Virus record (IMG/VR): IMGVR_UViG_3300045988_122866
Location: 90,982-154,981 of that record
Source: a virus
Length of the DNA: 64,000 bases
Direction: 5' to 3' (one strand)
Shown here: piece after piece, positions 21,814 to 34,083 of the stretch
Layout: each line of letters begins with the position of its first letter
How positions within the stretch are numbered: the first letter of the stretch is position 1
Notes under the pieces: generated by a model
The model's database searches: none
What the model was told of the DNA's origin: nothing
Seen by the model: the letters and a program-made list of their open reading frames with translations, nothing else
Program-made: the position numbers and the translations under genes

Positions 21814-22552
21814 GTGGTTTATTTGAAAATTGATTTAACAAATAAACAATGTGAAAATTTTAAAGTTATAAATCGAAATATTGAAAAAAAAGGTAAAAAT
21901 GTTTGGTGGAATTGTCAATGTAAATGTGGTAAAATGTTTACAGCGACAACTACTGATATTAATAGAGGTATTATTAAATCTTGTGGTTGTATGAAATCTG
22001 AATTATTAAGCAAAGCTCATTTACAAGATTTAACAGGAAAAACATTTGGAGAGTTATACGTAATTCGTAGAAACAAAGAAGCTCAAGTTAATGGGCATAA
22101 AACTACAACTATGTATGATTGTCAATGTTCTTGTGGTAATATTATTACCGTAGAAAGAAGTAAATTAATATCAAGAGGTCAAAAATCTTGTGGATGTAAA
22201 AATTCTATTGGGGAGTTAAATATTAACAAATTATTAACTGATAATAACATAAATTATATTTCTCAATATACAAATTAGAGCTTAAAAACTCAAAACAACG
22301 GTTTTTTAAGATTTGATTTTGCTATACTTGATAAAGAAAACAATGTTATTCGTTTAATTGAATTTGATGGCCCACAACACACTAAAACAGTTGAGTATTT
22401 TAATAAAACAGATTTATTAAAAGAAGTCCAAGCAAGAGATGAATTAAAAAATAATTATGCGAAAAATAATAGTATCCCTTTAGTAAGAATTCCTTATTAT
22501 AAAAGAGATACTATTAAAATTGAAGAATTATTAGGGGATCAGTTTTTAATCT
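21814..22552 (+). CDS. putative homing-type endonuclease: zinc-ribbon repeats (WxCQCxCG) plus DUF559-like PD-(D/E)XK endonuclease domain; in-frame TAG at 22276-22278
   Basis: ORF 21814..22278 continues in the same frame after TAG into ..RLIEFDGPQH..IPLVRIPY..GDQFLI, TGA stop; paralogs at 27732..28523 and 33358..34083. Confidence 0.55.
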
Positions 22553-22989
22553 GATTCCCTTAATTCTTTTCTTACTCGCATTAAAATTTTCCCTAATTTA
22601 TTATATGCCATTTTGTCTTGACACTTAATACAACGACAGACTCCCCAAGTATTATCGCACCAAGTATTTCCTTCTTCAAGCCAAGCTTCTCCGGTTTTTT
22701 CAAGGGCAGTCCGCAAGGTTGGGTTTTGCATAAATTTAGCTTTTACGCCCTTATACATAACATCTTCTTTAATATCTTCCCAGTCTTTGCGAATTACACA
22801 GTGTCTTCCTAATCTCTTGGATTTGCCAGGAGTAGGAGCCAGCCTAATTTCTTCTGCCTCGCCGGGGTTCGCTGCTTTCATTGCCTGGAAATAGTTTTCT
22901 ACCGTGAGATATCTTTTTCCTTCTATTGTAATTGGAGAGTAAAAAAAGTTGCTTAAAAAAGCAAAATCTCCTTCAAATTTATTAATCAT
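22546..22989 (-). CDS. NADAR (YbiA/DUF1768) family protein
   Basis: FLSNFFYSPITIEGKRYLTVENYFQAMKA matches the NADAR core motif. Confidence 0.6.
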   Translation of the reverse strand: MINKFEGDFAFLSNFFYSPITIEGKRYLTVENYFQAMKAANPGEAEEIRLAPTPGKSKRLGRHCVIRKDWEDIKEDVMYKGVKAKFMQNPTLRTALEKTGEAWLEEGNTWCDNTWGVCRCIKCQDKMAYNKLGKILMRVRKELRESD

Positions 22990-23217
22990 TTAAATTTCCT
23001 CAAAGTTCTGAAGATCCAATTCGGCTAAATCTTCAAAATCAAAATCTTCATTGTCATCAATATTGACACCATACATTTCGGCGCCCTCTTTAAGATACTG
23101 TCTTCGGCCTTCCATATACCATGTCCAGTTATCAACGCCATCTCCTTCAAGAACATTAAGCTCATTTTCAGCTTTAAGAAGCTCAAGAAGTCTTTCCTTA
23201 GAAACGATATAATTCAT
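22990..23217 (-). CDS. hypothetical acidic protein
   Basis: 75 aa ORF. Confidence 0.35.
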   Translation of the reverse strand: MNYIVSKERLLELLKAENELNVLEGDGVDNWTWYMEGRRQYLKEGAEMYGVNIDDNEDFDFEDLAELDLQNFEEI

Positions 23218-23289
23218 AATAATATCACCTTTCTTTTTATATAAATATTATATAATAATTTTTTAAAAAAATCAAAAAGGAGATAAGAA

Positions 23290-23826
23290 TTACTCCTTAT
23301 CTCCTTTTTCTTGAATAAAAGTTTTAATTGGCTCACTTACAAAACAACAAATATCGCATGCAACCTTTACTGACTCTTCTGGATCATGTTTCAAGTATAG
23401 TGCGGTTGTTGCATAAGGAGCGCCCGCTCCAATAGCAAAATAGTCTTTAATCTCTCTTACCATAAACTTACAAATATGGAAAAGATGTCCTTTATAGGCA
23501 ATAAGAAATTCATTTTTTAGAAATCCATCACCAATAAGAGTATTTTTCCATTTTGAAAATTCAATAATGTAATTAAGGATTTCTCGTTCATTAGCTTCAA
23601 CTGGCTGATGATTCTCCATATAAAGCCACATTAAGCTTTGTTCATCACCATAACCAACTCCGCCAAGAATCATATCGTTAATCTTAGCAATCTTAGCAAA
23701 ATTAACATTAGGCTCCTTCTCATAGCCATTAGTAAGAATACTATCAGCACTCATTACAATTCTATCATCATAAACTTTAGCAGCGACAACGCTCATTTTA
23801 ATCCTCCAACTGACAGATATAAACAT
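23290..23826 (-). CDS. hypothetical protein (possible Ntn-hydrolase/HslV-like fold)
   Basis: 178 aa; weak resemblance only. Confidence 0.35.
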   Translation of the reverse strand: MFISVSWRIKMSVVAAKVYDDRIVMSADSILTNGYEKEPNVNFAKIAKINDMILGGVGYGDEQSLMWLYMENHQPVEANEREILNYIIEFSKWKNTLIGDGFLKNEFLIAYKGHLFHICKFMVREIKDYFAIGAGAPYATTALYLKHDPEESVKVACDICCFVSEPIKTFIQEKGDKE

Positions 23827-33241: not shown

Positions 33242-33320
33242 ATTTTTAAAATTTACCTTTCTTTTTATTTTCTATAAATATTATATATTATTTTTTTATA
33301 AAAATCAATAAAGAAAAAAT

Positions 33321-33350
33321 GGGTTAGATATTTAATTAAATATCTAACCC
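33321..33350. terminator. terminator hairpin
   Basis: GGGTTAGATATTTAATTAAATATCTAACCC. Confidence 0.55.
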
Positions 33351-33357
33351 ATTAAAA

Positions 33358-34083
33358 TTACTTAATTAGATATTGATCTCCCATAATCATATCTAAAGTA
33401 ATATTATCGCGTTCCCAGTAAGGAATTCTCACTAAGGGAATGTTATGAGTTAAAGCATAATCATTTTTTACTTTATCTCGTTTTTGTGTAATTTCTAATT
33501 TTCCCCAAGCAGGAATTTCCATAAAATGTTGTTCGCCATCGAATTCAATTAAACGAACTACATTATTATCTTTTAATATAGCAAAATCATATCGGCTTTT
33601 TGGCAAATCATTAAAAGAATATTCATCAATAAAATCTATATTATTTTCTGATAATATAGATAAAATATTTATCGCTCCTATTGAGCGATGATAGCAACCA
33701 CAAGAAACAGTTTGATTTCCATCTTTTCTTTTTAGACTTTGCCCTCTAACGGAAATTATTTTTCCACAATCACATTGACAAATCCAATATACTACTCCAT
33801 GTGGTTTTGTATTATCTCTTTCTAATACAGTTAATTTACCAAACCTTTGCCCCTCTAAATGATCTCTATGATTTTCATTACCTTTATATGTAAGCTCATT
33901 ACGAAGACAACCACAACTTTGAATTTCACCACGTCTTAAAGACGAGCTTTTTATACTTTTAATCTTACCACATTCACACTAACAAATCCAATAACTACCA
34001 CTTTTGGTTATTCTATTTGTATCTTTTTCTAAAACGGTAAGCCTTCCATATTTATTGCCTGTTAAATCTATGAGTTTTGACAT
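33358..34083 (-). CDS. DUF559-like endonuclease with zinc-ribbon repeats (paralog 3); in-frame TAG
   Basis: ATG 34081-34083 after GGAGGAGG; YWIC(TAG)CECGK in repeat 1 versus YWICQCDCGK in repeat 2; C-terminus RLIEFDGEQH..PLVRIPY. Confidence 0.5.

Follow-up and report, generated by a model that had tools for sequence, protein, structure and literature searches.

Putative free-standing Vsr-like homing endonuclease genes in a phage that probably reads TAG as glutamine, and a candidate GGU-UAG-Y recoding site beside one of them

Several described systems are close to the one reported here. The EDxHD/Vsr-like homing endonucleases, of which I-Bth0305I is the prototype, include phage Hef-type and free-standing members (Taylor et al. 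2011, PMC3239194). In phage T4, mobA and gene 60 combine a homing endonuclease gene (HEG) with a translationally bypassed insert of 50 nt that protects against cleavage, according to PMC5009743, where Bonocora et al. 2011 is cited, and bioRxiv 10.1101/2022.08.31.505936. In the TGA-recoded 'Agate' phages, an intron homing endonuclease is preferentially recoded, which was read as holding the nuclease back until suppression sets in (Borges et al., bioRxiv 10.1101/2021.08.26.457843). Vsr-like phage HEGs, TAG-to-Gln phages, suppressor tRNAs and stop-recoded HEGs have all been published already. Here, a stretch of 64,000 nt (the window; positions 90,982 to 154,981 of IMG/VR virus record IMGVR_UViG_3300045988_122866) was analysed, in which three paralogous nuclease genes that contain TAG codons in frame, g1 (21823..22554, + strand), g2 (27732..28523, − strand) and g3 (33358..34083, − strand), are probably functional free-standing HEGs. 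Next to g2, the 5′ end of a metallophosphoesterase (MPE) gene carries a candidate recoding site, GGU-UAG-Y, which is undescribed as far as literature searches show.

The three genes were identified in a sequence-only reading as zinc-ribbon endonuclease paralogues. Their coordinates, shared modules and paralogy are borne out by the translations and by tblastn, with pairwise identities of 35–39 % over the full length (E 1e-38 to 1e-50). Alignment of the three proteins shows two modules in tandem, G-x-(F/Y)-G-(R/K)-L-T-V...Y-W-x-C-x-C-x-C-G...S-C-G-C, and after them a C-terminal nuclease domain with the motif R(F/Y)DF...R(L/I)IEFDGxQH...RD..KN...PLVRIPY. In module 1 the first C-x-C is CQC in g1 and C-TAG-C in g2 and g3, so that the reported WxC-TAG-C in two of the three copies is confirmed; in module 2 it is CQC, CKC, and CQC in g1, g2, and g3. 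The sole + strand gene here is g1, which has one TAG (22276–22278, codon 155) and a TGA stop (22552–22554). For this gene a TTG start at 21823 is likelier than the GTG at 21814, because AAAGGA is present 9 nt upstream; from the TTG, g1 begins MKIDLT, parallel to MAKIKDIT and MSKLIDLT in the other paralogues. Five TAGs are present in g2 (codons 34, 71, 78, 102, and 152; first bases 28424, 28313, 28292, 28220, and 28070), which stops at TGA, and one is present in g3 (33979–33981, codon 35, in the first C-x-C), which starts at the ATG at 34083 with GGAGGAGG upstream and stops at TAA. No fourth paralogue was found in the window by tblastn. An open reading frame (ORF) with four TAGs at 37425..38147 (+) was considered as a fourth copy and rejected as spurious, since it overlaps a RAGATH-33 RNA, translates to low-complexity sequence and is not matched by tblastn.

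Genes interrupted in this way could be decaying pseudogenes, in which TAG terminates and the frames are open by chance. The five TAGs of g2 and the near absence of TAG from the surrounding 20 kb (1 in 4790 codons) would fit such decay, but TAG is the sole in-frame stop in all three genes, with no TAA, TGA, or frameshift in 242–264 codons. The ratio of nonsynonymous to synonymous substitution (dN/dS) between orthologues is 0.05–0.16 at dS 0.15–0.34, for example 0.09 (dS 0.34) for g2 between the window and L005 and 0.11 (dS 0.27) for g3 between the window and L001, L numbers being the IMG/VR loci or genomes compared. Five Cys per module and D166, E180, D182, Q185, H186, and D203 are invariant in 65 orthologues. 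The TAGs are kept in orthologues at dS up to 0.34 and are exchanged with CAA/CAG alone, and TAG is also found at an otherwise invariant Gln of the catalytic motif. Other genes of the window have 56 in-frame TAGs, TAG terminates none of its 66 genes, and it encodes a CUA tRNA. The genes g1–g3 are intact and under purifying selection, and decay, rejected on the dN/dS values, is left with next to no probability.

The C-terminal domain was previously described as DUF559/Vsr-like. This stands for the fold: in an AlphaFold2 model (predicted local distance difference test, pLDDT, 88.8) and by fold comparison the domain is a Vsr-type PD-(D/E)XK fold, Vsr/DUF559-like, with kinship to a proven homing endonuclease. 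It does not stand at the level of Pfam families, as there is no match of g1–g3 to DUF559 (PF04480) at E <= 1, and the matches to DUF2726 (PF10881) of 23.8, 19.8, and 18.7 bits for the three proteins are all under the cut-off of 24.7. A precomputed PF10881 match is present on some database orthologues. The spacing of D166, E180, D182, H186, and D203 is compatible, by spacing alone, with D51/H64/H69/D97 of Vsr; the local motif is ExDGxQH, not the published EDxHD logo. In Foldseek comparisons with BFVD, full-length phage matches (E 1e-9 to 1e-21) are named homing endonuclease, group I intron-associated VSR homing endonuclease, or DUF2726 protein, and the matches to the N-terminus only are AP2/HNH proteins with the same Cys modules. 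PHROG 9084 and 7140 are matched at E 1e-18 to 1e-24, and these nucleases have more than 6000 database homologues. An NCBIfam search gave nothing relevant, and no NUMOD motif was matched by Pfam in g1–g3. The three proteins most resemble DUF2726-type 'VSR homing endonucleases' from Firmicutes phages, which are uncharacterised; g1–g3 share the fold of the EDxHD family as defined on I-Bth0305I and lack its sequence-level and NUMOD features. The two tandem Cys-rich beta-hairpin modules presumably bind DNA, and the Vsr/DUF559-like domain would cut it.

Comparison of gene order with relatives lacking the insertions shows that each slot is filled or empty independently. Among genomes in which the flanking genes are 92–100 % identical, the g1 slot is occupied in 4 out of 12, the g2 slot in 5 out of 12 and the g3 slot in 4 out of 13, in differing combinations. 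The g1 slot, between a NADAR gene and a small ORF/phosphatase, is filled in the window, L040, L049, and L050 (99 % identity), and the insertion is absent from L041–L048. The g2 slot, between a nucleotidyltransferase/small ORF and the MPE gene, is filled in the window, L001, L003, L005, and L012, and not in seven relatives. The g3 slot, between a DUF2828 gene and a major-vault-protein-like (MVP-like) gene, is filled in the window and L001–3 and is empty in L007, L008, L009, and L011. These filled and empty sites form a natural series for the three genes, from which targets can be read. An unrelated ORF of 118 aa occupies the g3 slot in L004, L005, L006, L010, and L012, and this slot is therefore a general insertion hot spot. 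In L004 the 118-aa ORF (MDKETVISNIDRLIE...; 11528..12009) is inserted just after the same terminator hairpin, and its L012 copy has a 12-nt deletion that creates a stop.

Further paralogues are present at L001 20649..21365, L003 20294..20977, L004 19303..20019, L011 8044..8700, and L047 7690..8358. The slots of further paralogues, upstream of the RNA ligase, upstream of ORF 37004, and between ORFs 20447 and 19918, are empty in the window. Insertions of 600–860 bp near ORF 19458 in L044, L046, L047, and L049 have no match to the HEG family. HEG paralogues adjoin DUF2828 homologues in L019, L024, L025, and L030, and an 80 %-identical orthologue of g3, P0002, lies directly after a DUF2828 gene in an unrelated phage, where the neighbouring genes differ. 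There, 2 out of 17 genes, the HEG itself among them, truly end in TAG, and the codon at position 35 is AAA. Because both this orthologue from a standard-code phage and the distant paralogues adjoin DUF2828, the g3 lineage tracks the DUF2828 gene and crosses the code boundary; the same HEG lineage is found with TAG as a stop in one kind of phage and as a sense codon in the other.

Alignment with genomes lacking the HEG (HEG-minus; HEG+ and HEG-minus denote alleles with and without the cassette) defines the junctions. The g1 cassette (21742..22563) is an insertion of 822 bp. It lies antisense within the last five NADAR codons and supplies a substitute C-terminus (LKEGN* to LRESD*), and the original NADAR 3′ end is kept downstream as the ribosome-binding site of the next ORF. 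The g2 cassette (27705..28603, − strand) spans 899 nt where the HEG-minus allele has 22 nt at the start of the MPE gene. It consists of the HEG, equipped with a hairpin, a promoter-like region and a ribosome-binding site of its own, and next to that a substitute MPE 5′ end finishing with GGT-TAG-C. It was previously considered that the genes sit between unrelated genes, which fails for g2, as this replaces the first codons of the downstream gene. The g3 cassette (33358..34189, −) lies between the DUF2828 stop codon and its terminator hairpin, with the repeat AT(C/T)AAGTAA at both junctions. Linked to it is a divergent tract at the 3′ end of the DUF2828/DUF7788 gene (34190..34335, −): 37 differences between HEG+ and HEG-minus alleles are fixed in the last 150 nt of DUF2828, and none in the other 850 nt or in 1 kb on the far side of the cassette. 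This tract is likely to be a target region or immunity tract, co-converted with the cassette and cleavage-resistant. Upstream of the g2 cassette there is a 66-aa ORF with four CxxC-type Cys (28604..28806, −; MIEIIE.PKYKCTCPTCGAKL...CPKCDDMITLKEEGREWN). Its stop overlaps the MPE start region in HEG-minus genomes, and in HEG+ genomes a remnant of 14 codons, MELITGDKTLVARY, now starts at the former ATG of MPE.

It is proposed that each HEG is the core of a mobile cassette of ~0.8–0.9 kb at the edge of one conserved gene, at the 3′ end of NADAR, the 5′ end of MPE, and the 3′ end of DUF2828. The enzyme presumably cleaves the HEG-less allele, and recombinational repair would then copy the cassette in, with the altered adjacent coding sequence in each cassette making the HEG+ allele uncuttable. 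Several points weigh against this proposal. The g1 and g2 insertions have no extended co-conversion tract, with changes at the junction itself only, and L047, which is HEG-minus, carries the HEG+ type of NADAR flank. All Pfam matches of g1–g3 are sub-threshold, and searches of the solved nucleases among PDB sequences with phmmer and a 65-sequence profile gave no significant match, 3R3P and Vsr being absent at E < 10. It could be that the three genes are accessory nucleases ('morons' with a restriction-like, anti-competitor, or host-takeover role), moved by ordinary recombination and not cutting the empty allele. In BFVD the closest structures bear the labels 'Restriction enzyme' or 'Endonuclease-like protein', and the unrelated occupant of the g3 slot points to general insertion hot spots. 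Such a role is unlikely given that the same HEG lineage stands beside the same target family (DUF2828, MPE) in unrelated contexts, that recoding of the neighbouring gene is confined to the junction and to HEG+ alleles, that the domain has structural kinship with a proven homing endonuclease, and that family members are annotated as intron-associated VSR homing endonucleases. The behaviour of free-standing homing endonucleases suggested by the sequence-only reading is supported by the independent slot occupancy and by the fixed differences linked to g3. With a probability of about 0.8, g1–g3 are functional free-standing HEGs of the Vsr-like PD-(D/E)XK kind, for which cleavage is predicted.

With TAG as a sense codon, the − strand of the window has 66 non-nested ORFs with 56 in-frame TAGs, terminated by TAA (58) or TGA (8) and never by TAG. 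When the TAGs of all window ORFs are compared with the DNA of relatives, the relatives have TAG 106 times and otherwise, in real genes, CAA/CAG (at g2 codon 102 in L005, in the ORF at 40589 in five genomes, and in the ORF at 42834). Likewise, TAGs of the relatives are opposite Q nine times and K once in the window. In the 30 unique HEG paralogues from all loci, the Gln of EFDGxQH (Q185 column) is Q in 25 and TAG in 5, with nothing else; in the g3 orthologue of L001, for example, this invariant Gln is written TAG. The first C-x-C column of the same set has TAG 10, Q 10, K 5, E 3, and R 2. In 49 database orthologues of g3 (63–95 % identity), position 35 is Q in 38, K in 9, R in 1, and E in 1, and Q185 is invariant. 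A TAG at the invariant Gln of the catalytic motif is a clean internal proof that TAG stands for Gln.

A suppressor tRNA with anticodon CUA is encoded at 49868..49957 (−), with the Gln-like identity elements U1.U72, G73, G2-C71, and G10 and a variable arm of 21 nt (4-bp stem, 7-nt loop CTTTGAA). An unpaired 1:72, G73, G2-C71, and G10 are the acceptor and D-arm elements used by the glutaminyl-tRNA synthetase (GlnRS) of Escherichia coli; G73 and a long extra arm are hallmarks of the recognition of bacterial tRNA-Ser by seryl-tRNA synthetase (SerRS). A tRNA-Gln is not known to occur in a class-II-like form. Relatives of this CUA tRNA in other phages have U1-A72, G73, and CCA. The same design, with the loop YTTTGAW or TTCTGAG, is found in unrelated IMG/VR phages (L057, L067, L071, L074, L078, and L079). 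CUA tRNAs with the same anticodon arm and a Ser-type body (G1-C72, G73, a GGCAGAGTGGTT D-arm, and a long extra arm) are found in L056, L061–L063, L068, L070, L072, L073, L075, and L076, which suggests TAG-to-Ser suppression or reassignment in those phages.

It was considered whether TAG is decoded as serine, or ambiguously, in the window as well. The 21-nt variable region and the G73 discriminator of its CUA tRNA, together with the existence of clearly Ser-type CUA tRNAs in other IMG/VR phages, speak for this, and as the long variable arm is of the kind recognised by SerRS, charging is uncertain from sequence. On the other hand, TAG is never opposite Ser codons in close relatives, where CAA/CAG are found instead, and the invariant Q column is composed of Q (25) and TAG (5). 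Gln-like features mark the acceptor and D-arm (1:72 unpaired or U-A, G2-C71, G10), unlike those of the Ser-type tRNAs from the same search, and GlnRS is known to accept CUA anticodons (Borges et al., bioRxiv 10.1101/2021.08.26.457843). Serine decoding is therefore very unlikely, and TAG is almost certainly read as Gln in this phage (genetic code 15). The hint on TAG decoding first drawn from the paralogues is thus upheld by the TAG/CAA/CAG exchange, the Q185 column, and the CUA tRNA. That recoding is tolerated in selfish elements, also suggested at that stage, is correct and not new (Borges et al., bioRxiv 10.1101/2021.08.26.457843).

TAG is unevenly distributed. The HEGs have 7 in 753 codons, compared with 1 in 4790 codons for the other genes between 17.2 and 37.3 kb (Fisher p = 6e-6), and the rest of the window has 49 in 11119 codons. 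The HEGs are TAG islands within a TAG-free block. The early TAG at codon 34/35 is common to g2, g3, and many paralogues. Since the full-length enzyme requires read-through of TAG, which comes early (codon 34/35) in g2 and g3, its production would depend on active suppression, and by analogy with the 'Agate' endonuclease, late gating of HEG synthesis by TAG is plausible.

The candidate recoding site is in the MPE gene (Pfam Metallophos; 26955..27735, −). Its GTG start overlaps the TGA stop of g2 as GTGA, and the extra C-terminal tail of g2, KGDDES, encodes the Shine–Dalgarno (SD) sequence of the MPE gene. Frame 0 has nine codons, MIKHYFITG, homologous to the N-terminus of unshifted enzymes, and then TAG; past TAG and one further base, GDxHG and the other 249 codons lie in the +1 frame. 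The site itself, GGT TAG C (27705..27711, −), falls between the Gly and Asp codons of GDxHG. A hairpin, GTGATAAAA/TTTTATCAC (27713..27735, −), extends from the GTG start to 1 nt before GGT. The HEG-minus allele, ATG GGA TTG ATT AAA AAG TTC TTT TTG ACT GGC GAT ACT CAT GGA, encodes MGLIKKFFLTGDTHG without interruption, and the 5′ end of the L002-type (HEG-minus) MPE gene contains ...TTTTTGACTGGCGATACTCATGG.... The window and four HEG+ relatives have AAAGGAGATGATGAGTC GTG ATA AAA CAT TAT TTT ATC ACA GGT TAG C GAT ACT CAT GGA.

The same arrangement is more widespread. A profile search of IMG/VR for MPE homologues gave GGT TAG Y GAY in several unrelated lineages, and every unshifted homologue has ...G|D.HG in one frame. 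A metagenome search, with a pattern that fixed W-L/F/I-V-x-GGT and allowed TAA, TAG, TGA, or TGG to follow, matched 26 MPE genes, all with TAG, and 22 non-MPE sequences by chance (11 TGA, 9 TGG, and 2 TAG). The shifted MPE loci are L097–L102, L144, L150, L155, L161, L163–L166, and L172–L219, plus 27702..27735 (−) of the window. GGTTAG is present in 27 out of 27 unique contexts, and the next base is C in 21 and T in 6; a pyrimidine after TAG keeps AGY, Ser, in the +1 frame. In these contexts frame 0 always begins at ATG, GTG, or TTG, accompanied by an SD-like sequence, and ends 0–33 codons past the TAG. Most shifted-allele loci gain ORF coverage when TAG is a sense codon.

Upstream of the TAG, variability is concentrated at the third positions of frame 0. 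Among codon differences upstream of the TAG, the synonymous share is 0.31 for frame 0 versus 0.195 for the +1 frame, and downstream it is 0.27 for the +1 frame versus 0.04 for frame 0. The coding frame switches at GGTTAGY, and both frames are under protein-coding selection. In the 30 nt before the Gly codon, shifted alleles have a hairpin ending 0–3 nt before GGT, with a median minimum free energy (MFE) of −8.8 kcal/mol (n = 19), versus −2.15 kcal/mol (n = 42; Mann–Whitney p = 5e-10) and no such hairpin in unshifted alleles. Shifted and unshifted alleles are interleaved, and three shifted alleles have unshifted nearest neighbours, at 97–99 % protein identity, from which they differ essentially in the 5′ segment. 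A Vsr-like HEG is immediately upstream in 12 out of 27 shifted alleles and in 1 out of 49 unshifted alleles, the latter being a mis-scored shifted allele. L015 is an exception, being HEG+ but unshifted.

These observations can be accounted for as follows. The protective alteration of g2 would be an insertion of 4 nt (TAGC) within the target, the sequence encoding GDxHG, which would destroy recognition, and ribosomes shifting to the +1 frame at GGU-UAG-C would rescue the MPE gene, giving ...TG-S-D.HG. The 3′ arm of the hairpin would still be within the ribosome when GGU is in the P site, and its re-forming would pull the mRNA forward. The 5′ stem-loop of gene 60 has been proposed to act in a similar way.

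There are points against this account too. Re-pairing in the P site from GGU to GUU is poor, no upstream SD-like stimulator was found at GGU-UAG-Y, and the shifted metagenome set was picked with GGT fixed in the search pattern. No consensus structure came from RNAalifold when the upstream region was aligned in a fixed register, because the 5′ arm is placed in different registers across lineages; the structural support is therefore the comparison of MFE between shifted and unshifted alleles, not classical covariation. In most lineages there is a TTG or GTG in the +1 frame 3–5 codons upstream of the Asp codon, usable for reinitiation, so that MPE could be made by termination and reinitiation with the frame-0 ORF as a coupling leader, or the gene could be dead in HEG+ genomes. 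For reinitiation, xVSDxHG would be a natural N-terminus for such enzymes, as in the window's own phosphatase, MNKTYAVSDIHG, and the poor re-pairing for a classical +1 slip is in its favour. In window-type and L025-type alleles, however, there is no ATG, GTG, or TTG in the +1 frame. Third-position variability and the synonymous fraction also follow frame 0 upstream and the +1 frame downstream, and the frame-0 peptide is homologous to the unshifted N-terminus. GGTTAG is invariant, TAG is the only stop used, the base after it is always a pyrimidine, keeping AGY as Ser, and the hairpin is specific to shifted alleles. As for a dead gene, the downstream coding sequence is conserved across the 27 contexts. 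Reinitiation or a dead gene is the less likely reading.

Other ways of passing the site are a bypass of the 4 nt and quadruplet reading of UAGY, both alternatives to a +1 frameshift. No tRNA with an 8-nt anticodon loop was found in the window for quadruplet decoding. A hop in the style of gene 60 was rejected as the primary mechanism, as a matched landing codon is lacking and only pyrimidines follow TAG; because of the missing landing codon, a +1 frameshift giving Gly-Ser-Asp is likelier than hopping. From the sequence comparisons, rescue of MPE by +1 frameshifting at GGU-UAG-Y is moderately probable. Slightly better than even odds are given to the wider proposal, in which the 4-nt TAGY is a saviour indel that spoils the nuclease site and is compensated by a +1 frameshift or a 4-nt bypass, driven by the hairpin. 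In this proposal the element would have spread by homing into at least three lineages of otherwise 97–99 % identical genes, with 27 contexts mostly in TAG-recoded phages. As UAG is there a stop early on or Gln once the suppressor tRNA is active, the output of MPE could report the genetic-code state of the infected cell.

The window has 32 % GC and ~22 tRNA genes, with nearly all genes on the − strand. Twelve IMG/VR relatives have genomes of 113–197 kb, with 92–99 % identity in shared proteins. The best explanation of the source is a phage of about 160–200 kb that reads TAG as glutamine through its own Gln-like CUA suppressor tRNA. No cultured close relative was found: in a megablast search of GenBank phages with 24 kb of the window the sole match was a tRNA-Thr, and in a tblastn search of GenBank phages with the MPE protein the matches, at <=45 % identity, were not informative.

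The MVP-like gene (30743..33241, −; Pfam MVP_shoulder 77 bits, Vault_3) adjoins the DUF2828/DUF7788 gene (34190..35719, −; PHROG 850 'RNA-binding protein'). Together with the RNA ligase, an RlaP-like nucleotidyltransferase, NADAR, and two metallophosphoesterases, these two genes make up a block that resembles a module for RNA repair or a ribonucleoprotein module. There is a sharp split in codon usage, in that 17226..18611, 24864..26240, 30743..33241, and 34190..35719 have a higher GC content (0.39–0.40), are TAG-free and use CAG:CAA for Gln at 19:2, 7:1, 27:1, and 10:0, and the AT-rich genes of the window write Gln as CAA and TAG, with CAG nearly unused. This split suggests a different origin or expression class.

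Among the RNA genes, a tRNA at 36288..36427 (−; Rfam 59.9 bits; ARAGORN Thr-TGT) has an insertion of 68 nt in the anticodon loop, which contains a T-arm-like hairpin (ATGAGTTCAAATCTCAT) and falls short of the size of a group I intron. In the tRNA-rich region, RAGATH-33 RNA is matched over its full length at 37504..37632 (−), with 126.8 bits (gathering score 120.4). At 52783..52857 (−) a tRNA-Arg(TCT) with C, not U, at position 33 was found by Rfam and missed by the standard ARAGORN scan, and at 59878..59948 (−) there is an AT-rich tRNA-like sequence with a 6-nt anticodon loop.

Compared with described systems, g1–g3 share the Vsr-type fold of the EDxHD/Vsr-like family (I-Bth0305I, PDB 3R3P), but have no detectable sequence similarity to it. 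Their N-terminus is composed of Cys-rich zinc-ribbon-like hairpins rather than NUMOD motifs, their motif is D...ExDGxQH...RD..KN (DUF559/DUF2726-like) rather than the EDxHD logo, and, unlike the I-Bth0305I prototype, they are outside any intron. In architecture and fold they match the DUF2726-type proteins of Enterococcus phage 113, Staphylococcus phage SEP9, and Bacillus phages Bobb and Eldridge, and differ from them in belonging to a TAG-to-Gln phage and having in-frame TAGs. With the endonuclease of the 'Agate' phages they share the enrichment of the reassigned stop within an otherwise standard-code (early) region, although here TAG is reassigned to Gln and the genes are free-standing and of another nuclease family, whereas the 'Agate' case is TGA to Trp and intron-borne.

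At the MPE site, +1 frameshifting of the 'shifty stop' kind, as in prfB (RF2) and antizyme, offers one comparison. In both, the shift codon is followed by an in-frame stop in the A site, and the rest of the essential protein is encoded in the +1 frame. The MPE site differs in that the stop is UAG and not UGA, the shift codon GGU re-pairs poorly at +1, and the candidate stimulator is an upstream hairpin instead of an SD sequence or a downstream pseudoknot. UAG is also otherwise a sense codon in this phage. If the proposed frameshift is correct, this would be a new, very short, and widespread bacterial +1 recoding signal, of roughly a 24-nt hairpin plus 7 nt, and a direct handle on how ribosomes treat UAG in cells infected by code-switching phages.

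The closer likeness is to mobA and gene 60 of T4. In both cases the HEG is directly upstream, the insertion splits invariant Gly and Asp codons of the downstream gene, UAG follows the Gly codon at once, a stem-loop is 5′ of the site, the element moves among genes that are nearly identical, and translation has to rescue the gene. The differences are a gap of 4 nt at MPE versus 50 nt in gene 60, the absence at MPE of a GGN landing codon before the Asp codon, where gene 60 has matched take-off and landing codons, and the absence of a take-off stem-loop enclosing the Gly codon, the conserved structure being the hairpin 5′ of Gly. In addition, g2 is Vsr-like and MobA is HNH-type, the target gene is different, and the hosts of the element here are TAG-recoded phages. 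If the proposal holds, the g2–MPE pair, in which a selfish nuclease would shield its host allele by an insertion that is put right in translation, would be a second natural example, and an independent case, of the mobA/gene 60 principle.

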